Shown: positions 5,169 to 59,479 of the stretch, piece after piece | Position numbering within the stretch: the stretch's first letter is position 1 | Layout: every line of letters starts with the position of its first letter | Assembly: GCA_964643325.1 (NCBI GenBank) | Contig: CAZXSE010000007.1 | Location: forward strand, 1 to 60,137 | From: an uncultured Planctomycetales bacterium | GTDB lineage: Bacteria > Omnitrophota > Gorgyraeia > Zapsychrales > Fredricksoniimonadaceae | Direction of reading: 5' to 3' | Length of the DNA stretch: 60,137 nt | Notes under the pieces: model-generated | What the model saw: only the letters and a program-made list of their open reading frames with translations | What the model was told of the DNA's origin: nothing | Database searches by the model: none | Position numbers and translations under genes: made by a program

Positions 5169-6716
5169 TTGCTCATGCTTGCCAGATCATTCACCTTCGG
5201 GCTCAACGGACTGAGCGCCTACCCCATTACCATTGAAGTGGACGTTAGCCAGGGCCTGCCATCGTTGACCATCGTCGGCCTGCCGGACAATGCCATTCGT
5301 GAGAGCAAAGAGCGCGTCCGCTCCGCGATCAGGAACTCCGGCTACACATTCCCATCCGCGCGCATCATCATTAATCTCGCTCCGGCCGACACGCCCAAAG
5401 AAGGCCCCTGCTTTGACCTTCCCATCGCCCTGGGCCTTCTGGCCGCGACCGAACAACTGCCTGTAACACTCCTGGCCCGTTTCGCCTCTTTGGGAGAACT
5501 TTCACTGACCGGAGAAATAAAAACAGTTGCCGGTGTCTTACCCGCATCGATCGCTTCGGCGCAGAACACGGACGGCAACGGCGGCGGATTGATCGTACCG
5601 CGCGCCAACGCCGAAGAAGCTGCCCTCGCGCACAATGCCCGTATATTCCCTTTCACCACATTGATCGAAGCCGCCCGATTCATCCAGGAACCTGAAAAGA
5701 CCAATGCATTCCTCGCCGCTGCGCAAGGGCCGGGCCAAGATGCCGCTACCTGCGGCGAGCTTGATCTAGGCGATGTCAAAGGACAGACCATTGCCAAACG
5801 CGGACTTGAAGTGGCGTCAGCCGGCGGGCATAACGCGCTTTTGCTGGGGCCTCCGGGCAGCGGCAAGACCATGCTGGCCCGGCGCCTGCAGACCATCCTG
5901 CCACCATTGACCCGCGACGAGGCGCTCGAGATCACCAAGATCCATTCGATCGCCGGCATCAACAGCTCCGGGACCACGCTGACCTGCACCCGGCCGTTCC
6001 GCTCGCCGCATCACACGGCATCGACCGTTTCTCTCGTCGGAGGCGGCTCCGACCCAAAGCCGGGAGAGGTGACCCTCGCGCATCACGGCATCTTGTTCCT
6101 GGACGAATTACCCGAATTCAGCCGCAGCGCCCTCGAGGCCCTGCGCCAGCCACTGGAAGACCGCTTCGTTACCATTGCTCGCGCCACCAGGACCCTGCGC
6201 TTCCCCGCGAAATTCACCCTGCTGGCGGCCATGAACCCCTGCCCGTGCGGGCATCTCGGCGACAGGCAAAGAGCCTGCCGCTGTTCCAGCACGCAGATCC
6301 AGCGGTATCAGATGAAAATATCCGGGCCGCTCCTGGACCGGATCGATATCCACCTGGATGTCCCTGCGTTAAGGACCGAAGACCTGCTCGGTGCTCCATC
6401 GGGAGAATCTTCCGCGACGATCCGCGCGCGTGTCGTTGCCGCACGAGAGCGCCAGCTGGCGCGCTTCCATGCGGAGAATATTTATGCCAACGCGCAAATG
6501 TCCCACCGGCATATCAGGAAATTCTGTGCCCTGGACAAGGCCTCGCAAAAACTTCTCAAAGAAGCTGTGGATAATCTCGGACTTTCCGCGCGCGCCCACG
6601 ACAAGATCTTGCGCCTGGCGCGCACGATCGCCGACCTGGCTGAACAAGAGGACATCTCCCCCGCGCATCTGGCTGAGGCTATCGGGTACAGGACGTTGGA
6701 CAGGAATATTAAATAA
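5169..6716 (+). CDS. comM: YifB/ComM Mg-chelatase-like AAA+ ATPase
   Basis: GLPDNAIRESKERVRSAI, GPPGSGKT Walker A, LFLDELPEF, SGPLLDRID. Confidence 0.95.
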   Translation: MLMLARSFTFGLNGLSAYPITIEVDVSQGLPSLTIVGLPDNAIRESKERVRSAIRNSGYTFPSARIIINLAPADTPKEGPCFDLPIALGLLAATEQLPVTLLARFASLGELSLTGEIKTVAGVLPASIASAQNTDGNGGGLIVPRANAEEAALAHNARIFPFTTLIEAARFIQEPEKTNAFLAAAQGPGQDAATCGELDLGDVKGQTIAKRGLEVASAGGHNALLLGPPGSGKTMLARRLQTILPPLTRDEALEITKIHSIAGINSSGTTLTCTRPFRSPHHTASTVSLVGGGSDPKPGEVTLAHHGILFLDELPEFSRSALEALRQPLEDRFVTIARATRTLRFPAKFTLLAAMNPCPCGHLGDRQRACRCSSTQIQRYQMKISGPLLDRIDIHLDVPALRTEDLLGAPSGESSATIRARVVAARERQLARFHAENIYANAQMSHRHIRKFCALDKASQKLLKEAVDNLGLSARAHDKILRLARTIADLAEQEDISPAHLAEAIGYRTLDRNIK

Positions 6717-16737: not shown

Positions 16738-16833
16738 AACGATCCTCCTGTTCCTTATATGTCCCCGAAAAGCATCCTGCCGTAATGGAAAAAATCCCCA
16801 TTTTTTTCGTTCTATGTTAGAATTTTTGCCGTT

Positions 16834-16905
16834 GTCCCCTTAGCTTAACGGATAAAGCACAAGCCTCCGGAGCTTGGGATGAGGGTTCGATTCCCCCAGG
16901 GGACG
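16834..16905 (+). tRNA. tRNA-Arg (anticodon CCG), CCA not encoded
   Basis: Acceptor stem GTCCCCT/AGGGGAC, anticodon arm CAAGC-CTCCGGA-GCTTG, T-loop TTCGATT. Confidence 0.95.
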
Positions 16906-16952
16906 TTTTTTCAGTATTCTACACAAATCATAGCTGAAAGCAATAAGAGCCT

Positions 16953-25125: not shown

Positions 25126-25159
25126 TTCTTTGGGTTTGGTGCTCTTTAAGAAATGATCG

Positions 25160-25250
25160 AATGAAGTTGGCAAACTACTTGAAAGAGTAGGACGCAAAGC
25201 CACGAGCCTAACCTCACCTTCCGGTGAGCACGGTCGTCGGGTTGCCGTAA
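25160..25250 (+). promoter_or_regulatory. Cyclic di-GMP-I (GEMM) riboswitch
   Basis: GGCAAAC-TACTT-GAAA-GAGTAG-GACGCAAAGCCACGAGCCTAA...ACGGTCGTCGGGTTGCC matches the c-di-GMP-I consensus landmarks. Confidence 0.9.
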
Positions 25251-45501: not shown

Positions 45502-47022
45502 TTACGCCACATCATGCAATGTTGTTGTCGAGAAATGCGGGTCTGTTGTCAGATTGATCCCCAGCCGCCTTAACCCCGCGTCGTCGCCGGGCGTGGGGAT
45601 ATGGGTCATGTGGACCTCACAGCCTTTAAGCTCAACGATCTTCTCCAAGGCCAGTTTTGAAACAGGGTTCGTGGCCGCGCTGATGCTCAAGCTGATCATC
45701 GCCTCATCCAGGTCAAGGCTCACGGACTTGGCCTTGAGGATGTCTTTCTTGAGGCTCGCGATCGCCTTGATAATGTCCTCGGATAAGAGCGGGATCTTCG
45801 CCGGGATCTCGGCCAGGTGGCGCACGGCATTGAGAATAAGGCTCGAGGCCGCATGCATCATGGGCGTATTGTTGCCCGTGATGATCGTCCCGTCGGAGAG
45901 TTCAATGGCGGCGCCGCAATAAACACCCTCGTTACCCGCGCCCTTGGTCTGCGCCGTCTCAGCGGATTTGCGCGCGGCAGCCACGACCTTGCGGTCAAGT
46001 TCCTTGACGCCGGCCTCCTCCATCAGCAGCTCAACCCGCTGAACCGCCTCTTTATCGACCAGCCCCATGGCATACTCATACTTGTAACGGAACAATCTGC
46101 GAACGATCTCCTGCTTCGCTGCATCCTGGACGATCGCGTCGTTGGCGATGCCGAAGCCCGCGCAATTGACCCCCATGTCCGTCGGAGAATAATAAAGCGT
46201 CTTGCCGCCCGTTATCTTGTGCAGGATCCGTTTCAGGACCGGGAAGACCTCGATATCGCGGTTATAATTGATCGCCAGTTTCTTGTACTTCTCGATATGG
46301 AACGGATCGATCATGTTGTAATCTTTGATATCCGCGGTCGCCGCCTCATACGCCACATTCACCGGATGCTTGAGCGGGATGTTCCATATCGGGAATGTTT
46401 CAAACTTCGCGTAACCGGCCTTGAGGCCCTTCTTATGCTCGTGATAAAGCTGGGAAAGGCAGGTCGCAAGCTTGCCGCTGCCGGGCCCCGGACCCGTCAC
46501 AATAACGATGCGGTTCTTGGTCTCGATATACTCGTTGGCCCCGTAACCCTGGTCGCTGACGATCAGGTCCACATCCGTCGGATAACCGCGCGTGAAAGGA
46601 TGCGTGTAAACCTTCACTCCGCCGCGCTCAAGCTTCTTCTTGAAAATGACCGCGGAGGGCTGGTTCTGGAAACGCGTGATGACCACGGCGCAGATCGTGA
46701 TGCCCCAATCTTTGAGATCGTCGATCAGCTTCATGGCATCCGCGTCGTAGGTAATGCCGAAATCCGCACGGATCTTGCGGCGCTCGATATCGCCCGCGTA
46801 AATACACAGGATGATATCCGCCTCGTCCTTGAGTTTTTTGAGCAGACGCATCTTGACATTAGGGTCGAACCCCGGCAGGACGCGCGAAGCGTGCATGTCA
46901 TAGAGAAGCTTGCCGCCGAACTCCAGATAAAGCTTATTGTCGAATTTTTTGACGCGCTTGCGGATCGCGGCCGCCTGCTCTTTCAGATACTTCTCATTAT
47001 CGAAACCGATGGGATTTGCCAT
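45502..47022 (-). CDS. DUF1846 family protein
   Basis: GFDNEKYL, LYLEFGGKL, GPGSGKLATCLSQLY, YAKFETFP, NYNRD. Confidence 0.92.
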   Translation of the reverse strand: MANPIGFDNEKYLKEQAAAIRKRVKKFDNKLYLEFGGKLLYDMHASRVLPGFDPNVKMRLLKKLKDEADIILCIYAGDIERRKIRADFGITYDADAMKLIDDLKDWGITICAVVITRFQNQPSAVIFKKKLERGGVKVYTHPFTRGYPTDVDLIVSDQGYGANEYIETKNRIVIVTGPGPGSGKLATCLSQLYHEHKKGLKAGYAKFETFPIWNIPLKHPVNVAYEAATADIKDYNMIDPFHIEKYKKLAINYNRDIEVFPVLKRILHKITGGKTLYYSPTDMGVNCAGFGIANDAIVQDAAKQEIVRRLFRYKYEYAMGLVDKEAVQRVELLMEEAGVKELDRKVVAAARKSAETAQTKGAGNEGVYCGAAIELSDGTIITGNNTPMMHAASSLILNAVRHLAEIPAKIPLLSEDIIKAIASLKKDILKAKSVSLDLDEAMISLSISAATNPVSKLALEKIVELKGCEVHMTHIPTPGDDAGLRRLGINLTTDPHFSTTTLHDVA

Positions 47023-47035
47023 AAGGTCCTTTCAC

Positions 47036-47067
47036 AAAAAAAGAGACAACCTTTGGAAGGTTGCCTC
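47036..47067 (-). terminator. Intrinsic terminator within the 5' leader of DUF1846 (attenuator-like)
   Basis: Minus strand GAGGCAACCTT-CCA-AAGGTTGTCTC followed by T7, ending just before the RBS. Confidence 0.75.
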
Positions 47068-47108
47068 ATTTTAACTGGTACATTTTATCCTGTGACATAT
47101 GGAGGGGT

Positions 47109-47137
47109 ATTCTAGAACAATGTCCTGAAATTATCAA
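47109..47137 (-). promoter_or_regulatory. Putative sigma70 promoter TTGATA-17-TAGAAT for the DUF1846-carB operon
   Basis: Read directly on the minus strand. Confidence 0.6.
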
Positions 47138-47230
47138 TTTAAATCAAATTAGTATGAATTAAATAGAGTCCTTGCGTGTATACTGGACAGGCGAAATAGA
47201 AAATAGTTCTTATTAATGCAGGAGGGAATT

Positions 47231-47290
47231 ATGGGTGACAAGAATCCGAAGAACAAGATCAAGAAGGCCAAAGCAGGAAAAAAGAAGTAA
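47231..47290 (+). CDS. Small Lys-rich peptide, 19 aa (MGDKNPKNKIKKAKAGKKK)
   Basis: GGAGGG RBS, ATG 47231, TAA 47288-47290, hairpin downstream. Confidence 0.6.
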   Translation: MGDKNPKNKIKKAKAGKKK

Positions 47291-47320
47291 GAACTGCTTT
47301 AAAAGTCTTTGTTACGCAGC

Positions 47321-47364
47321 CCAGGGGCAAGCCGTTCTCATCAGGCTTGTCCCTGGTCTATTTT
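47321..47364 (+). terminator. Hairpin/terminator after the small peptide ORF
   Basis: CCAGGGGCAAGCC...GGCTTGTCCCTGG then TCTATTTT. Confidence 0.6.
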
Positions 47365-47380
47365 GCCGACCAACTCTATC

Positions 47381-47421
47381 GCCCCTCCCCCTACCCCCTC
47401 CCACGCTACGCGGGGAGGGGG
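47381..47421. repeat. C-rich palindromic REP-like element, copy 2
   Basis: GCCCCTCCCCCTACCCCCTCCCACGCTACGCGGGGAGGGGG. Confidence 0.85.
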
Positions 47422-47433
47422 CATTTGGCATCT

Positions 47434-47664
47434 TCACTTCCTGATCAGTTCTTCCACCAGCGTCAGTCGCGGCATGATGGGCAGCTTCTTCCCTGCAGGC
47501 AGAAAAAGTTCAACCTCTCCCTCTCTCTTTAACATCTCAAACGCCTCACTGACGCGATCATCCTCCAAAAGCGAAATAACCCGTCTTTTAACCTCTTTAT
47601 CCTTAAGTTTAACGACGACCTTGGCGTTCCCGTTCTGTGCGTTCAATATCAACAACGCTTTCAT
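47434..47664 (-). CDS. Hypothetical protein, 76 aa, divergent from the repressor
   Basis: AAGGAGG RBS before ATG 47664; clean ORF. Confidence 0.75.
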   Translation of the reverse strand: MKALLILNAQNGNAKVVVKLKDKEVKRRVISLLEDDRVSEAFEMLKREGEVELFLPAGKKLPIMPRLTLVEELIRK

Positions 47665-47821
47665 AAAGACCTCCTTATAATGAAGTAGTTCGGTTCACCC
47701 TGAAGACACACAATATCCCTTGGAGACCCGGAATGATCCCGGGTTCTGAACAAAGTCAGGACTTTATCCTAACAGCTTTGATCTAAAAGTCCTTACTTGG
47801 CAATATTTCTGGTACATACCA

Positions 47822-47895
47822 AATATGAACTATATTGCTTCACTTGTCAAGTCGATGGAAAATATAGTTGCATTAAAGCGCTTTAGTGTTATACT
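47822..47895. promoter_or_regulatory. Back-to-back promoters with candidate operators
   Basis: Leftward TTGACA-17-CATATT (47850-47822); rightward TTGCAT-16-TATACT with extended TG (47868-47895); inverted repeat AACTATATT/AATATAGTT; palindrome TAAAGCGCTTTA. Confidence 0.65.
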
Positions 47896-47904
47896 AATAG
47901 TGTT

Positions 47905-48597
47905 ATGTTTAATAAAACGCTGACACAATACAGGGAGCGGGCGGGCATCAACAAGACCGATCTGGCGCACAAGGTCGATGTGTCACTCTCTTATATTGTC
48001 GGCCTTGAATCGGGCCGCCAGAAGCCCCCTACCCGCCAGTTGTGCGAAAAGCTGGCCCAGGCACTTTCTTTGAATGAACAGGAGCGCAACGAGCTTATCG
48101 AACTGGCGGTCATCAACCGCCTGCGCTCCACCGACCTTGCAACGATCGCCAACAAGTTTGCCAAAGACCAGCCCGTTACAGCCACGGCTATCGCGATCGA
48201 AAAACCACGCCAGGTCCCCATCCTGCCCTGGGAAGCCGCGAACAAGAGAATAACCGAAGACGATATCCCGGCCGGGCTCGCCACCGTTACTGCGGAAACA
48301 GAGCCCAGGGACGGCCTCTTCGCGCTCCGTGTCCGCGATGCCTCCATGGCGCCGGAATTCCAGATCGATGACATTGTCATCATTGATGCCTGCTCTGCCC
48401 CGAGCCACAATGACTTTGTGCTGGCCGCTGACAGCAAAGGGCATGCGCCATTATTGCGGCAGTTCAAGGACTACGGCGCGACAACAGTGCTGCATCCTCT
48501 GGCCAATGACGCGCAGGATATTGTGATGGAACAGGAAAAGAGATATTCTATCGTCGGAAGAGTTGTGGAACGGCTTTCGCGGGGGAAAAAGTATTAA
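47905..48597 (+). CDS. XRE HTH + S24 peptidase-like (CI/LexA-type) repressor
   Basis: N-terminal HTH (INKTDLAHKVDVSLSYIVGLESG); FALRVRDASMAPEFQIDDIVII; IVGRVV. Confidence 0.88.
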   Translation: MFNKTLTQYRERAGINKTDLAHKVDVSLSYIVGLESGRQKPPTRQLCEKLAQALSLNEQERNELIELAVINRLRSTDLATIANKFAKDQPVTATAIAIEKPRQVPILPWEAANKRITEDDIPAGLATVTAETEPRDGLFALRVRDASMAPEFQIDDIVIIDACSAPSHNDFVLAADSKGHAPLLRQFKDYGATTVLHPLANDAQDIVMEQEKRYSIVGRVVERLSRGKKY

Positions 48598-52757: not shown

Positions 52758-52788
52758 AAAAGCCCGCATCATTCCGATGCGGGCTTTT
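52758..52788. terminator. Intrinsic terminator after the large secreted protein pair
   Basis: AAAAGCCCGCATC-ATTCC-GATGCGGGCTTTT. Confidence 0.88.
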
Positions 52789-52809: not shown

Positions 52810-55641
52810 TTACGCTGACTTGGGCGTCAATACCCCTTGTGCCTCGCTAAAGAGCGGCACGTTCGCCGCGGGTACGATCTGCAGGATCACGGGCACAAGC
52901 CCGTCGATCTTGATGTTATCAAGGTCCTGCTGATCCAAGGGTAACGGCACGCCACTGCCATCGCGCTTGATCTGCAGTTCCAGATTAGCGGAATTCATGT
53001 CGATACCACCAACATTATCATCCTGAGCAGCATCAGAACCGACGTTCTGCGCCATGTCATAGAAGTCTTCTACTGTTTTCACCTTACGGTCCAATTCACC
53101 TAAAATCCCTATGCTAAATTGGACTCCAATAGAAAAATCATTCATAAACTCTGAGAATTCTTTATCCTTCAATTTTAACCTGATCTCGCGGACTTTCTCA
53201 GCAAGAATCTTTGATCTTTCTAAATCACTTGCCGATTTTCCCTTGCTATCTTGTAATATATCCGCCACGATGCCTTTGATCAATTTGCTGCTCTCTCGAG
53301 CATATTTAATATACTTCTCATTTCCCACTAACATCTTCTTGGCAAAATCTTCACCGAGATAATAGACCAAATCATCTGCAGCTTTCTTAAAACCTCGCTC
53401 CTCCTTTTCGTCAAAAACTACTTTTTTAGCGATCACTCGGGTTTCACCCGAAATAGCATCAAAGATTTCGGTTCTAATCCTCTTAAGCAGGTTCCGCGCC
53501 CATAATACCTGCCAAGGCGGCCCTTTTATGCTCTTCATATTCCCGCTAACAATCGTTCGGATAAAATCACTGGGCGTCCAGTCTCCATCCTCTTTAAAGT
53601 CTCTCCATGCCATCTCTCTCATAAAGTCCGGACTATCAATCTTGCTGCAAAGCTCCACATGCAGATCCCTAAGCTTCCGAAGAAGATTCTGAAAATCTTC
53701 TGTCTGTAATTTCTTCAGATGCCCAACATTTATGCCGGACTTTCTTGAAATATCTGCTGCCAAGCCTTCTATAAATTTCTCCCAGCTGCTGGTGGTATCA
53801 ATGGCCTGTCGCGCCATCCCCTCCAATACGCCCTCTTTCGCTGATGCATATTGTTTCCAGAACATTCCGTCCATAAAGTCATTAACAGTAAGCTCACCAA
53901 AAGATTGATCTGTTAATTTTACCGTATTATCAAAATCTGCAAAATACATCAATATAGTCTCAACTTCATCTCGAACATGAACAAGATCGGTCTGAAATCT
54001 TTTCTGCCCCTGAACCGCTTCCATTACTTGAGCGAACTCTTCTGAAGAATAAGTTAAAAGATCTTTCTTGGATGCCTCAATTTTGTCGTAATAACCCTCA
54101 TTATTCAGGACCTGCGTTATTTTCTTGGCAAGATCTTTCCCTTCCTCCGACAAAGCAAGCCATAACAATTTAGCCTGTTGAAACTGAAGCTCGGTCCTTT
54201 CAATCTCCTTCTGCTGTTCTTCCGTCAATCCTGACATATTTATTCTTTTGTCCTCTGCAAACAAAAGGCTCTGCATATTACTATCAAAGTCTCCGAACAT
54301 TCCCTGCGCCATCACAGCAGTTTCCAGCAATACATTCATCGATTCTTGAACCTGTGGCTGCTCTGGACGATAATTCAACAAATAAAAACCCATCTCTCGC
54401 TTAAGACGAGGCGATATCTTGCCAAGTTTATCAGCAAGCGCTGACCCTTGGGGCATGGAGAAGATAGTATTCCTGTTCGTAACTTCTCGTCTTGAAACAG
54501 AGCTCTCTGAGTTATAGTGCTTCAAAAATGCGTTCACAAGATCCCGATCTCCCGACCCGCTCTGAGCCCTGGTAAGCCCTGCGGCGTCAGACGTCCTGAC
54601 GATCTGCGCCCGATCATATCCTTTCGTTCCCCCCGAGAAATACTTGCGGGGAATGATCTCCTGCGAATACGTATCCAAATCCTCGCGGATCATGTTAAAG
54701 ACGCCTTTCTTGAACGCCTGGACATACTGCTCATAAATGGTCTGGTTGTTCTTCGGGTCCTGATCAACACCCTTGACCTTGCCCTGATCCGCGTACAGTT
54801 TCCCGAGAATGGTCTCTTTGAGCGCCATCTTATACCAGGTGGCCAACAGCATGCCGCTGTAAACCTGACGCAGGGGCGCGAAATTCTTGCCTTCATTCAC
54901 TTCCTTCTCGATCGCCGGGATGATAACCTCGCGCATGACCTGTTTGGAGATCTTGACCGCCTCATTATCCTCGACAATGCCCGTTGCCAGCACATTGGCC
55001 TGCATGGACCGGTAATCGCTTTCCATCATGACCTTCAAATGGTTCTCCAGGACCACGACCGTATTGCCCTTTTCATAAACAACGGCCTTGTCAGGCGTGA
55101 TCCAAACCTTGTTAAAAGTATCGAGGGGGATATCGGTCGTACCAAATTTCTGATAGGCCTGCGCATAAACCCCGTCCCAAAACTTTTTACCCAGGTCCGT
55201 GTCAGGGTCGGTCAGCGATGCCGAGATCTGTTTCAAGAGATAATCCTGCGCCAGAAGGTCGCGCCCCATCTCGGTCAATCCAAAATTATCCGGCACAATA
55301 CGGTCCTGCTCATACGGAGATAAGTTCACCCACTGATCCGTATCGGGAACGGCCAATGACGCCAGAAAATACTTGATGAGCTTGGTATATTCCGCCTGCT
55401 TCTGATCATCGGTCATGGACGCATCACCGCGATGGATGATGAAATCAAACTTGAACGGCTCTGTCGGATGAATGACCATGCCTTGAAGGCTGGCAGGCGT
55501 AAATCCGGAACTTAACGCGACCGTAACGCCCGGTTCAGGCATGAGGCCCACAGCGGTCATGGCCTGGGCAAAACCCTGCGGAGGCATAGCACAGCTAAGA
55601 ACAAAGCTGACCAGAATGAAGAATGTCGTTATCTTTTTCAT
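52810..55641 (-). CDS. 943-aa modular secreted protein A (conserved N-module, AT-rich variable core, GGID C-module)
   Basis: Signal-like N-terminus; N- and C-modules align with 55892-59380. Confidence 0.88.
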   Translation of the reverse strand: MKKITTFFILVSFVLSCAMPPQGFAQAMTAVGLMPEPGVTVALSSGFTPASLQGMVIHPTEPFKFDFIIHRGDASMTDDQKQAEYTKLIKYFLASLAVPDTDQWVNLSPYEQDRIVPDNFGLTEMGRDLLAQDYLLKQISASLTDPDTDLGKKFWDGVYAQAYQKFGTTDIPLDTFNKVWITPDKAVVYEKGNTVVVLENHLKVMMESDYRSMQANVLATGIVEDNEAVKISKQVMREVIIPAIEKEVNEGKNFAPLRQVYSGMLLATWYKMALKETILGKLYADQGKVKGVDQDPKNNQTIYEQYVQAFKKGVFNMIREDLDTYSQEIIPRKYFSGGTKGYDRAQIVRTSDAAGLTRAQSGSGDRDLVNAFLKHYNSESSVSRREVTNRNTIFSMPQGSALADKLGKISPRLKREMGFYLLNYRPEQPQVQESMNVLLETAVMAQGMFGDFDSNMQSLLFAEDKRINMSGLTEEQQKEIERTELQFQQAKLLWLALSEEGKDLAKKITQVLNNEGYYDKIEASKKDLLTYSSEEFAQVMEAVQGQKRFQTDLVHVRDEVETILMYFADFDNTVKLTDQSFGELTVNDFMDGMFWKQYASAKEGVLEGMARQAIDTTSSWEKFIEGLAADISRKSGINVGHLKKLQTEDFQNLLRKLRDLHVELCSKIDSPDFMREMAWRDFKEDGDWTPSDFIRTIVSGNMKSIKGPPWQVLWARNLLKRIRTEIFDAISGETRVIAKKVVFDEKEERGFKKAADDLVYYLGEDFAKKMLVGNEKYIKYARESSKLIKGIVADILQDSKGKSASDLERSKILAEKVREIRLKLKDKEFSEFMNDFSIGVQFSIGILGELDRKVKTVEDFYDMAQNVGSDAAQDDNVGGIDMNSANLELQIKRDGSGVPLPLDQQDLDNIKIDGLVPVILQIVPAANVPLFSEAQGVLTPKSA

Positions 55642-55816
55642 ATTTGCCTTCCCTTTCAGGGCCTTCTTATTAAGGAAGTAACAGGCCCCAAGACGCCACC
55701 TATATAAATATACCCTATAAAGATCCTCAAAAGGGCTTTTTCAAGGATTTTTGAGAAAACGTTATCTTCTCGTCGGAGAGAAAGAAAGATGGTCGGGAAA
55801 AATATGGAAAAAGAAA

Positions 55817-55861
55817 GGGCCGATATCCCCATACTGGGGACTTCGTGAAATCGGTCCCTAC
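55817..55861. repeat. GTAG-type REP-like palindrome with internal hairpin insert
   Basis: GGGCCGAT-ATCCCCATACTGGGGACTTCGTGAA-ATCGGTCCCTAC; insert resembles that at 49921-49943. Confidence 0.7.
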
Positions 55862-55891
55862 GGATACCATATATATGTGTGGTATCTTTGC

Positions 55892-58800
55892 TTAAAGTAC
55901 GCGGGAAGGAACAGCGGGGCGGATGTTCAAGATAACGGGCACAAGGCCGTCAATGCGGATACTCTCAAGGTCTTGCTGGTCAGCCGGCAACACAATACCA
56001 TTGCCATCGCGCTTGATCTGCAGGTCAAGCGCGGATACGTTCAGGTCAATACCGCCCTTGACGATCTCGGCCTTGTCAGAAAGTTCCGTCATATCGTCAC
56101 CGCGCTCTTTAAAGAACGTATATGTCTGGTGATAGATCCGGTCCAAACGGAACTGTTGCTCATCCTGCCTGTCCCCGTCGGAGAGCCCCTCGAAGAGGCC
56201 GAAATCGTCAAAAAAGGCATCTCCAAGAAGTTCTTGGCGCAGGGCAATGCTCCTGGGGTCCGTGGATCCCTGCCTCATCATTTCCTTAAGGTCCCCCATA
56301 AAATCACCCACATCCTGTTTTTCGATACCGGCAATCCGGATCGCAAAACTCCGGCCAGCGAGCTTTGCCAGGTCATCCCAGGACTTCTGATACGCAGACA
56401 CCGGAAGAAGCGAGGCGCGTCCGTGAAACAATGAATCCAGGCCGTCATCTATACCCTGCCCCATTCTTAAAACTTTATGTTGCGGTATCGGCGCCGGCAT
56501 AAGAACCTTGCCGATCTCATCGCGCAGGCGGTCAATGGTCTTAAAAGTCCGTGTCTGGTTGAAGACCATCTTCAGCATACGTTCGACCAGATCATCCTTT
56601 TCCTTATCCGACGCACCGGCAATATCGGCACGCCTCTTGCTTGCAAGCACCTGATCAATACTCAAGCGCGGATGGGTCAAGACATTCATTACAAGCTCGG
56701 TGAATTTCTCAAGACTGAAGCCAAGCTCGCGCAGGCGCACAACAACAGGCTCAAGTCCCGGAATGGTCTTAAGGCTGATCCTGAGCTCGGGCCTCAGATC
56801 ATCATGCCGCAGGCGCAGGTACACGACCTGCGCGCGATGACGCGCCTGAAGAGGATGCAAGGGGCCAAGAATATCCATGCTGGTGTAGGAAGATCCCGAA
56901 ACAACGGCCTTTCCGGGTTTACCCAGATACTCCAGTGCCAGCTCCGTCAGGACCTCTTCGATCTCCTCCGGCGCCGGCAATTTCTGGAACATAAGGCGCT
57001 TTAATTCCCTGATGAACTGCTCCTCCGCCGCCATTTCCTGCGCAAGGACTTCCGCCGCCGCAGGAACAATGGCCTTGCCGACCGGCAGATCAACATTCTC
57101 GATGGCAATGATGCGGTTCAGGTATCTGTCCACCACATCCGCGATCGCCTGGCGAAGAACAGTTGCCAGCTCCTTTGGCTCATCGATCTCCGCGAGCGTC
57201 ACTTGCTCCATGAACGATTTGCGGTACTCACCCCCTGTTTCCAGAAGAATATCCCGAAAAGTGGACCTGCTCCATGGCTCCTGCCAGATAATAGCCTCGT
57301 TGTTCTTGAGCCTGAAGAATCCGGCATACGCATCCAGCGCCTGCCGATAATGCGGATCAGTCATCAAAACCGTCCAAAATTGCGGCCCCAGATACAGAGG
57401 ATCAGGCCCATCATAAAAATCAACCACTGCCCGCTCGATATGGTCAAGGACCGGCTTGATCAGCACATCAAGTTCGGCCTTGCGGAATTGACGATGACAG
57501 GCGCCCAACAGGGCCGTCTTGATCACTTCCGGCATATCGGCAAGCGTTCCTGCATCTCTTGCAAAATAACCGTTGATCAGCGCCGACCTGCGGCGGTCTT
57601 CGACAAGCTCTTCCCATAACAAAGGATCCTGCCGACGAAGCCCCCGAGGGCCGTATTCCGCGACCTTCTGGAGCGCCGCTTCATACACAGGACTCAGGCG
57701 GCGGCGATAATCCTCGCGTGCCAGGCTAGCCACCAGGGCGGTCATGACCTTGTCAAGCAAGTCTGCCCTCAATTTACGCGAAGGGTCCTTGGCATCAAGC
57801 CGTGCCAGGCGCTCATGACTGAAATTCACCGGAAAACTGAAATCCCTGCTAGTGTCCACAGGATTGAATGACTGGGCCAGGCCGACATCTTCTTCAAAAT
57901 ACCTGCCATCCTCGTCAGACTGGTACATCTGAATAAGCCGGATCAACAGGTTCCGCCATTCTTCCGACAACAACGACCAGGCCTTGCTCGCCTGCCTGTA
58001 CTCCGCAACCTCATGACTGCCGTTCAGCCGCAGAAGTTCGGCGATCGCCTGCTTGAGCTCATTGCCAGTAGGCTTGAGACGATCATTATTCAGCGCCCAG
58101 ACCTTGATGAGCGCGGTAATGCTGTCAAGCGCCTCCTGCCTCAACTCGCTGTAAGGGCGACCGCCCAGACGGACGGTCCATCCGGACTTTAATTCAAGCT
58201 GTCTGTAAAAAACCTCCCACATGTCTTTCGGAACAAGGCCTTCCCCGACGGCTGCATCCGCTGTCGTCTCAGCCGCGTCCGACACGACCCGCGTGCTCAC
58301 AATATCAGCAGTATTCATCGCGGCATCTGCCCTTGCGGCTGAATCCGCATCAGACCTGACGACAACATTTTGCGCGCTGTCACCGACCATGCCGCCCGAG
58401 AAATACTTGCGGGCAACGGTCTTTTGCGTCGGAACATCAACTTCCTCTTTGATCATGTTAAAGACGCCCTGTTTGAACGTGCTCACATACTGCTCGTAGA
58501 TCTTCTGATTGTTCGCCGGGTCCTGATCAACCCCCGCAACTTTGCCCTTGTCCGCATAAAGCTTTCCAAGGATTGACTCTTTCAAGGCCATTTTGTACCA
58601 GACAGCCAGCAGCATGCCGCTATAAACCTGGCGTAACGGCGCAAAATTCCTGCCCTCGTTCACTTCCTTCTCGATGGCCGGAATGATGACCTCGCGCATA
58701 ACATCTTGTGTCACGTCAGACTGCGGCGATGTTCCGCCGCCAACTCGCTGTGCCCGTTGATCAGCGGCTACGCGATCCGCGTCCATCATGACCTTCAAAT

Positions 58801-59380
58801 GATGCTCGATGATAACAGCCGTGTTCCCTTGCTCATGGATCACAGCGCTGTCCGGCATGATCCACACCTTGTTGAATGTGTCCGTCGGGATATCCGTTGT
58901 GCCGAACTTCTCATACGCCTGCGCGTAAACACTGTCCCAGAACTTTTTGCCAAGATCCGTGTCAGGATTGGTCAGCGATGCCGAGATCTGTTTCAGAAGA
59001 TAGTCCTGGCTCAAAAGATCACGTCCCATTTCAGTGCGGCCAAAAGTTTCCGGGATCATGCGGTCCTGTTCGTAAGGCGAAAGATTCACCCACTGCTCAT
59101 CCTCGGCAACGGCCAGCGATGTCAGGAAATACTTAATAAGCCGAATATATTCAGCCTGTTTCTGATCTTCAGTCAAAGGCGTGTTGCCACGATGGACAAT
59201 AAAATCGAACTTGAAAGGATCATTGGGGTCAACGGTCATGCCCTGGAGCATAGCAGGCGTGAATGCGGCGCTTAACCCCGGCTGAACGCTGGCCGTCATG
59301 CCCTGGGCAAGGCCTTGCGGCGGCATGACACAGCCGAGGATGAAACTGATAAGAATTAAGAATGTTGTCAACTTTCGCAC
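55892..59380 (-). CDS. ~1160-aa modular secreted protein B (paralog of A with an unrelated core)
   Basis: Start placed at GTG 59380 by alignment (MRKLTTFLIL vs MKKITTFFIL); same N- and C-modules. Confidence 0.88.
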   Translation of the reverse strand: MRKLTTFLILISFILGCVMPPQGLAQGMTASVQPGLSAAFTPAMLQGMTVDPNDPFKFDFIVHRGNTPLTEDQKQAEYIRLIKYFLTSLAVAEDEQWVNLSPYEQDRMIPETFGRTEMGRDLLSQDYLLKQISASLTNPDTDLGKKFWDSVYAQAYEKFGTTDIPTDTFNKVWIMPDSAVIHEQGNTAVIIEHHLKVMMDADRVAADQRAQRVGGGTSPQSDVTQDVMREVIIPAIEKEVNEGRNFAPLRQVYSGMLLAVWYKMALKESILGKLYADKGKVAGVDQDPANNQKIYEQYVSTFKQGVFNMIKEEVDVPTQKTVARKYFSGGMVGDSAQNVVVRSDADSAARADAAMNTADIVSTRVVSDAAETTADAAVGEGLVPKDMWEVFYRQLELKSGWTVRLGGRPYSELRQEALDSITALIKVWALNNDRLKPTGNELKQAIAELLRLNGSHEVAEYRQASKAWSLLSEEWRNLLIRLIQMYQSDEDGRYFEEDVGLAQSFNPVDTSRDFSFPVNFSHERLARLDAKDPSRKLRADLLDKVMTALVASLAREDYRRRLSPVYEAALQKVAEYGPRGLRRQDPLLWEELVEDRRRSALINGYFARDAGTLADMPEVIKTALLGACHRQFRKAELDVLIKPVLDHIERAVVDFYDGPDPLYLGPQFWTVLMTDPHYRQALDAYAGFFRLKNNEAIIWQEPWSRSTFRDILLETGGEYRKSFMEQVTLAEIDEPKELATVLRQAIADVVDRYLNRIIAIENVDLPVGKAIVPAAAEVLAQEMAAEEQFIRELKRLMFQKLPAPEEIEEVLTELALEYLGKPGKAVVSGSSYTSMDILGPLHPLQARHRAQVVYLRLRHDDLRPELRISLKTIPGLEPVVVRLRELGFSLEKFTELVMNVLTHPRLSIDQVLASKRRADIAGASDKEKDDLVERMLKMVFNQTRTFKTIDRLRDEIGKVLMPAPIPQHKVLRMGQGIDDGLDSLFHGRASLLPVSAYQKSWDDLAKLAGRSFAIRIAGIEKQDVGDFMGDLKEMMRQGSTDPRSIALRQELLGDAFFDDFGLFEGLSDGDRQDEQQFRLDRIYHQTYTFFKERGDDMTELSDKAEIVKGGIDLNVSALDLQIKRDGNGIVLPADQQDLESIRIDGLVPVILNIRPAVPSRVL

Positions 59381-59479
59381 GACAACCAACTTCTAATAAG
59401 ACTACTTTTGTTAATAATGCCCCACCTTTGACAAATATACCCTATAAAAAGCCAAAAAACACCCCCATGGACAAAAAAA

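Follow-up and report, generated by a model that had tools for sequence, protein, structure and literature searches.

An AT-rich core, best read as a replaced segment, in a mosaic gene of a Candidatus Omnitrophota protein family

The stretch of DNA analysed here, referred to below as the window, comprises positions 1 to 60,137 of contig CAZXSE010000007.1 (assembly GCA_964643325.1) from an uncultured wastewater bacterium assigned to the Omnitrophota. It harbors a mosaic gene, gene A, whose conserved ends enclose an AT-rich variable core, a genuine feature rather than an artefact, for which replacement of the segment is the best reading. Gene A (52810-55641, minus strand, as for all its parts) is a single open reading frame (ORF) of 943 amino acid residues, taken from the ORF list and its translation, with the stop codon at 52810-52812. 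Both its sequence and the family consensus indicate a predicted signal peptide at residues 1-27 (MKKITTFFILVSFVLSCAMPPQGFAQA; 55561-55641), which is probably cleaved after AQA. It is followed by a conserved N-module (residues 28-376; 54514-55560) of native codon usage, which contains the invariant YFSGG (residues 334-338; 54628-54642), then a loop of fixed length and poor conservation (residues 339-364), and is closed by a conserved D-x-V beta-strand (residues 365-376; 54514-54549). The variable core (residues 377-877; 53011-54513) is AT-rich, with a GC content of 0.42 and a GC content at third codon positions (GC3) of 0.43. The conserved C-module (residues 878-943; 52813-53010) returns to native codon usage, displays the pattern GGID...LQIKRDG.G.PLP..Q.L..I.IDGLVPVIL.I.P, and ends in a short tail.

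A tandem paralog, gene B (55892-59389, minus strand; 1,165 codons), lies directly upstream of A. The two proteins are 68% identical over residues 1-348 of A, to just beyond KYFSGG; a further 48 residues close to the C-terminus (GGID...LQIKRDG...IDGLVPVIL) are 71% identical, and the 779-residue core of B is unrelated to that of A.

A protein search with A returned at least 4,239 clusters (90% identity), 51-80% identical to A over the N-module, and every named match belongs to Candidatus Omnitrophota. These matches cover 31-45% of A (62% in one case), corresponding to the N- and C-modules only. The common build of the family comprises a signal peptide, a conserved N-module of approximately 350 residues, a hypervariable core ranging from 158 to 1,227 residues, and a conserved C-module of approximately 60 residues (40-70), which opens with GGI[DN] and contains IDGLVPVIL. 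In nearly all matches listed, [YF]F[ST]GG lies around residue 334, and GGI[DN] occurs once, 40-68 residues from the C-terminus. Gene A displays all three family features, namely the N-module with YFSGG, loop and D-x-V strand, the C-module, and an unrelated core, and family members, like A and B, are frequently arranged in tandem arrays. A Pfam domain was detected in the core of five of the 43 members scanned (AvrB_AvrC, GT2, methyltransferase, COMMD1_N and HD), none of them common to two members. Comparison of A and B with Pfam, NCBIfam, PHROGs, PADLOC and PDB sequences gave no meaningful match for either module, the Pfam scan of A yielding nothing at E ≤ 1, and no description of the family or its motifs was found in the literature searched, including papers on Omnitrophota. 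As far as found, neither the family and its scale nor the precise in-frame exchange inside its genes has been described; a mosaic gene with an AT-shifted, replaceable segment is as such familiar. Judging from the sequence, A is probably exported via the Sec pathway, with a core that would face the outside world, be it hosts, prey or phages.

Structure prediction of A with AlphaFold2, run on a family alignment of 70 sequences, gave a full-length model with a mean predicted local distance difference test score (pLDDT) of 60 and an N-module model with a predicted template modelling score of 0.73. The pLDDT values reached 80-96 over most of residues 31-280 (with two short dips) and 66-94 over residues 341-380, and in the full-length model the strand at residues 915-924 falls in blocks of mean pLDDT 69 and 92. 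The core, 58.6% purine, was predicted as all-helical at low confidence. The models suggest that the last strands of the N-module and the C-terminal strand pack together, with the core looped out between them. Searching both models against the PDB gave no match below E 0.06, the best hit of the N-module model having an E of 0.065 and a template modelling score of 0.13. A helical toxin fold of the ClyA/Nhe type was considered and rejected, the matches being weak, the helices of low confidence and the root-mean-square deviation above 17 Å.

The compositional contrast within gene A is pronounced. The N-module (residues 1-338) has a GC content of 0.515, a GC3 of 0.672 and a first-position GC content (GC1) of 0.54, the following residues 339-375 a GC3 of 0.62, and the C-module (residues 878-943) a GC of 0.571, a GC3 of 0.712 and a GC1 of 0.65. 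The corresponding values for the core (residues 376-877) are GC 0.416, GC1 0.50, second-position GC 0.32 and GC3 0.432. The other 43 ORFs called greedily in the window have a GC3 of 0.672 ± 0.060 with a minimum of 0.545, which places the core approximately four standard deviations below their mean and lower than any of them. An amino-acid-controlled expectation, derived for each segment from its amino acid content and the codons used by 23 window genes, predicted a GC3 of 0.702 for the core (z = -14.0), so that its GC3 drop is not due to amino acid content; the z values of the N- and C-modules were -1.3 and 0.0, respectively. Among the arginine codons of the core, CGA and AGA account for 8 of 27 each, as compared with 13 and 17 of 634 in the 23 reference genes (approximately 30% each versus 2-3%), and TTA and TCA are likewise enriched. 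The core is homogeneous in composition (chi-square p = 0.16) and therefore acts as one block; a sub-mosaic within it is unsupported. Its relative synonymous codon usage correlates with that of its own genome at r = 0.03 and with lower-GC Omnitrophota backgrounds at r = 0.44-0.57, which is compatible with a donor inside the phylum and proves nothing. All three parts of gene B have a GC3 of 0.63-0.64. The first-pass annotation of this DNA had described an AT-rich core in A and a genome-like core in B, both of which were borne out, and an N-module of about 55% GC, for which 51.5% was measured.

The best two-change-point fit of GC3 along gene A delimits a block from codon 364 to codon 888, with a log-likelihood ratio of 29.8 that none of 200 codon shuffles reached. 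Profile-likelihood sets place the left edge at codons 350-382 and the right edge at codons 876-896. The right set contains GGID (878), in keeping with the earlier proposal that composition shifts back near GGID, and the left set leaves out FSGG (338) by 2.9 log units. Residue-by-residue identity to A ends at 338, and the family alignment remains gap-free to about residue 380, with conservation past FSGG of an acidic residue at 367 (97% D or E), V or A at 369 and a hydrophobic residue at 373. In the AlphaFold2 model, residues 346-375 form a strand-helix-strand unit with pLDDT values of 66-94. On the strength of this gap-free alignment and the confidently modelled D-x-V strand, the true end of the N-module is at about residue 376, matching both the composition switch and the boundary set in the first-pass annotation, and the proposed coincidence of the core boundary with a module border is upheld, since the end of the strand lies within the left edge set. 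Gene A is a true mosaic.

The 3' junction carries a nucleotide-level peculiarity. The second glycine codon of GGID (codon 879; 53005-53007, minus strand) is GGT in all 26 family genes examined (A, B and members at loci L001-L029, L110 and L111), across genomes of very different GC content, and it is the sole invariant third position among 28 invariant four-fold degenerate codon columns. This pattern points to a constraint on the nucleotide sequence right at the junction of core and C-module, for which a recombination mark and a role in translation are both possible.

Core replacement was examined by same-locus comparison of strains elsewhere in the family, at loci L110 and L111 (members P0014 and P0018). 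Here the N-modules are 97% identical and the neighbours are the same, with two genes of the T2SS-F (type II secretion system) kind upstream and a gene of approximately 7,000 codons downstream. A DNA alignment of 7,068 nt at 95.6% identity runs to codon 356 of the family gene, 17 codons past YFSGG; the cores of 344 and 279 residues then give no blastn match to each other, and alignment resumes, at 89.6% identity, at codon 682, two codons ahead of GGID (684). Identity at four-fold degenerate sites is 0.80 in the N-module and 0.79 in the C-module versus a saturated 0.32 in the alignable part of the core, which makes the cores much older than the sequence flanking them. They differ in length, carry duplications, and have a GC3 of 0.37 and 0.28 as against 0.58-0.61 in the N-modules. 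This is a complete core swap between two strains that are approximately 95% identical. At the protein level, two further pairs of members (P0004/P0009 and P0035/P0041) share neighbours and gene order and have cores of unequal length. Among 115 members, core homology was detected in 28 of 6,555 pairs, and N- and C-module identities co-vary (Spearman 0.48). In 20 pairs the N-modules are 85-97% identical, and the cores of ten of these are wholly unrelated.

An exhaustive phmmer search with the core of A over 1.84 billion representative proteins recovered its own protein only, and comparison with the 120 closest family members gave no match. A relative with the same core, which would have spoken against the capture proposed in the first-pass annotation, was thus not found in these collections. 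A word-index search with the core missed even its own protein and was not relied on, the exhaustive search serving as cross-check; the same tool did return the own protein for full-length A and for the core of B. The latter, of native composition, likewise found only itself, with no relative in JGI metagenome contigs, and the lack of homologs is consequently no sign of foreign origin. An exact-protein lookup of A retrieved no contig on record, and a scan anchored on the PPK2 gene next to A gave 80 loci at 72-81% identity, a family member being present in none.

Taken together, we consider it probable that the core of A is a replaced segment, which came in by recombination at or near the module edges from a source of lower GC content. 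The signal peptide, the N-module to about residue 376 and the C-module from residue 878 would have evolved in this genome, and the central approximately 500 codons would have had a separate and probably shorter history there. The core most likely arrived by homologous recombination anchored in both conserved modules and would not yet have drifted to the codon usage of the host; the donor would be a divergent allele or a family paralog in an Omnitrophota lineage of lower GC content. The family would then represent a conserved two-part carrier around an interchangeable middle, with tandem arrays as a possible supply of recombination substrates. Since the core of B in the same genome is native, AT-richness appears to depend on the history of each core. 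For A itself, we infer in which direction the event went, what the donor was and when it took place, just as we infer the packing of the N- and C-modules and the location and function of the protein. With neither a donor nor a relative of the core at hand, transfer into A is deduced from composition alone. The earlier claim of direct evidence for payload exchange thus stands in part: cassette replacement is supported in the family, at L110/L111, but the window by itself provides no direct evidence of it. The related claim of a recent horizontal capture is in a similar position, as the foreign codon usage agrees with it, while 'recent' and 'horizontal' go beyond what was observed, and 'recent' draws on a composition that has not yet converged on that of the host.

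The composition of other cores bears directly on this reading. In a sample of 23 members with DNA, compared with crudely called neighbouring genes, core GC3 was below the local background in 20 (mean shift -0.117; Wilcoxon p = 1.3e-5) and below that of the own N-module in 22, and the N-modules differed from background by -0.004 on average. Individual shifts form a continuum between +0.09 and -0.29; the deficit of A, -0.24, is among the largest, similar to those of L012 and L023, and the cores of L008, L019, L025 and L026 have no shift. In nine members with a strong signal, the left edge of the low-GC3 segment lies at most about 36 codons from the end of YFSGG, and in eight of them the right edge lies at most about 20 codons from GGID; in the ninth, L011, the segment stops 110 codons early. 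A different situation occurs at L013 (8001-10985), where the entire family gene, modules included, has a GC3 of approximately 0.40 versus a local value of 0.69, which looks like a whole-gene transfer rather than one of the core only, and a milder form of the same is seen in L004, L007 and L022.

Several observations weigh against replacement of the core of A from a lower-GC source. An AT-shifted core is the family norm and not peculiar to A, and the shift is found even in low-GC hosts; random exchange would produce a symmetric distribution, so that the one-sided bias calls for either an AT-rich pool or a process operating in place. The sample behind these figures was picked by similarity to A, includes several genes per metagenome-assembled genome, and was measured against the crudely called background. 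Crossovers anchored in modules that are 70-80% identical should often fall inside the modules, and the edges sit at the module ends. Long identical tracts between A and B, the mark of recent gene conversion, are lacking, the identity of the N-modules being 70-85%, and recent conversion between A and B was rejected for this reason. Finally, no donor or relative of the core of A was found in any collection searched, and the scans revealed no related strain with the PPK2-A-B-ETF locus, so that a replacement at the site of A itself has gone unobserved.

Because the AT shift is the family norm, a process acting steadily on the cores in place stays a live rival, to which we give a minor but real chance. 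Under this explanation no donor was involved: the cores would evolve fast under diversifying selection and become too divergent to recombine, so that AT-biased mutation, weak codon selection and the absence of GC-biased gene conversion would draw their synonymous sites to AT, the modules continuing to recombine and keeping the composition of the genome. The one-sided family shift with unshifted N-modules is what it would lead one to expect, nearly all cores are without homologs, including the B core of native GC, and some close pairs keep weak core homology (29-58%) beside N-modules that are 89-97% identical. However, the same mutation bias should then operate across the whole gene, yet GC3 in A differs by 0.25 with sharp edges, and the core of B in the same genome is unshifted. 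The saturated four-fold sites of the L110/L111 cores, next to flanks at 80%, would require mutation in the core alone to be at least tenfold faster, and the unequal lengths and duplications of these cores speak against simple divergence as well. No mutator mechanism is visible either: the window contains no reverse transcriptase-like ORF, no template repeat and no second copy of the core of A, which also distinguishes A from the target gene of a diversity-generating retroelement.

That AT-rich or rare codons are themselves selected in the core, for instance because they slow translation during folding or export or keep expression low, is improbable, even though the pattern recurs in many members and rare codons are strongly enriched in the core of A. 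The core of B and those of L008, L019, L025 and L026 lack the shift, and the continuous range of shifts fits differences in history better than a functional need. Moreover, the lower GC1 of the core of A (0.50, versus 0.54 and 0.65 in the N- and C-modules) extends the effect beyond synonymous sites.

Slightly less credible still is an origin of the core as cargo picked up from mobile DNA, be it a phage, a plasmid or something else, instead of from another family member. Mobile DNA is typically AT-richer than its hosts, and some family cores carry domains resembling effectors or enzymes, such as AvrB_AvrC, HD, GT2 or methyltransferase; against this, a tblastn search with the core of A was blank in 50,697 phage records, 72,556 plasmids and IMG/VR. 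At the locus itself, no integrase or transposase, no nearby tRNA gene and no direct repeats bracketing the core were found, in which respect A also differs from a genomic island, and the neighbours are housekeeping genes.

The integrity of the assembly was assessed with per-run Logan contigs from four wastewater runs, which show zero differences across the region at an even depth of 3-5x. The N-module/core junction is spanned by contigs covering 54143-54742 (run X1) and 54364-54695 (run X3), and the core/C-module junction by a contig covering 52921-53182 (run X1). Since these separately assembled contigs span both junctions, the core of A is no assembly artefact. Population variants of the core were not seen at this depth, in contigs rather than reads. 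An assembly chimera, in which the modules as repeats linked the core of another organism into the contig, is the least plausible explanation of all: the modules are indeed repeated, and Logan contigs do join those of A and B, but the per-run contigs from separate runs cross both junctions without mismatch at even depth and the left junction lies in unconserved sequence with no k-mers in common. The joining contigs in question (runs X2 and X1) connect 52908 to 56007 in the C-modules and 55286 to 59052 in the N-modules, with short sides of 27 and 44 nt; they are probably assembly-graph crossings between the paralogs, deletion or fusion variants being the alternative.

Several known systems resemble the family in part, although it belongs to none of them. 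In the flagellin FliC, conserved N- and C-terminal ends are structurally paired, and the centre is surface-exposed, hypervariable, recombining between strains and compositionally atypical. Gene A shares with it the conserved ends and variable centre, but has no Flagellin_N or Flagellin_C domain (no Pfam match at E ≤ 1) and no fold match in the PDB; the family has a Sec signal peptide, flagellin none, and its cores are far more diverse and include enzyme domains, each genome having many paralogs, frequently as tandem copies. The centre of VlsE is exchanged through gene conversion from adjacent silent cassettes. No silent or spare cassettes and no core-like copies elsewhere were found in the window, which separates A from VlsE, Vlp and Vsp, and only 38 of 120 family members fit a lipobox pattern; a lipoprotein anchor was accordingly rejected as a family feature.

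Polymorphic toxins such as Rhs, CdiA and MafB combine a conserved trafficking part with diverse, recombining payloads (Zhang et al. 2012, PMC3482391), and the family is like them in being exported (probably so in A) and multi-copy and in having some enzyme-like or effector-like payloads. Toxins of this kind vary at the C-terminal tip, and an immunity gene comes next, in many cases with orphan cassettes behind it; in A, by contrast, the variable part is internal and followed by a conserved C-module, with a terminator and PPK2 downstream and no spare cassettes in the window. Segmentally variable genes, which hold variable segments within conserved sequence, have been read as adaptive where the organism meets its environment (Zheng, Roberts & Kasif 2004, PMC387263), but they constitute a descriptive class and not a family, and the concept neither predicts nor explains a codon-usage island or complete replacement. 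The MASP family of Trypanosoma cruzi is a large multigene family in which a strikingly variable centre lies between conserved N- and C-terminal parts (PMC2691823); MASP and VlsE, being eukaryotic and spirochaetal, respectively, have no homology to the Omnitrophota family.

The Omnitrophota are uncultured, mostly ultra-small, and believed to be dependent on other cells or to prey on them (PMC10066038), and the family is a natural candidate for a variable interface with such partner cells. Going further, we offer as a tentative idea, and a rather unlikely one in its full form, that the family could be a phylum-wide cassette carrier of these ultra-small, host-dependent bacteria. The N- and C-modules would form a scaffold unseen in the PDB that exports, displays or delivers a payload; strains would exchange these payloads at defined junctions, the 3' one marked in the DNA by the invariant motif GGN-GGT-ATY-GAY; AT-rich cores would come from a pool shared across the phylum; and the whole would be the counterpart, directed at hosts, prey or phages, of variant-surface and polymorphic-effector systems. 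The family also offers a clean natural system for asking how in-frame cassette exchange targets domain borders and why the variable segments are AT-shifted.

Two other loci of the family have settings of their own. At L001, member P0005 (2576-5407) is preceded by a gene for a group II intron reverse transcriptase/maturase (1086-2258; TIGR04416, 377 bits) and bracketed by a 46-nt direct repeat, 98% identical (2282-2327 and 5598-5643). A diversity-generating retroelement was rejected, this reverse transcriptase being a group II intron maturase and the window lacking both a reverse transcriptase and a template. The member at L110/L111 (4000-14247) lies between the two T2SS-F (TadB/C-like) genes and the giant gene of approximately 7,000 codons. 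This arrangement agrees with a T2SS-like locus that has been reported to precede giant genes in Omnitrophota (bioRxiv 10.1101/2023.11.21.568195), and a functional link is possible, on the example of one locus only.

The remaining features of the window were as follows. Directly 3' of the stop codon of A, a terminator-like hairpin (52758-52788, minus strand) combines a 14-bp stem with a T run; downstream of A are thus this terminator and PPK2, and downstream of B is A itself. A 27-nt element (55706-55732, minus strand) lies 65-90 nt 5' of the start codon of A, and a second copy, 85% identical, is located at 59433-59459, approximately 45-70 nt 5' of the start of B; being common to both genes, it is probably a promoter or leader element. 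The genes around A and B encode PPK2, an SDR-type protein, a Band 7 protein, a LexA-like regulator, DUF1846, carbamoyl-phosphate synthase, PEPCK and ETF-alpha. Outside gene A, GC is lowest in the kilobase 47001-48000 (43.6%), most of which falls between the DUF1846 gene and the LexA-like gene with HTH and peptidase S24 domains (47905-48597). The only tRNA gene in the window is a tRNA-Arg (CCG) at 16833-16906 (plus strand), and a c-di-GMP-I riboswitch aptamer (Rfam RF01051; 75 bits, E = 6.5e-13) was identified at 25159-25249 (plus strand).

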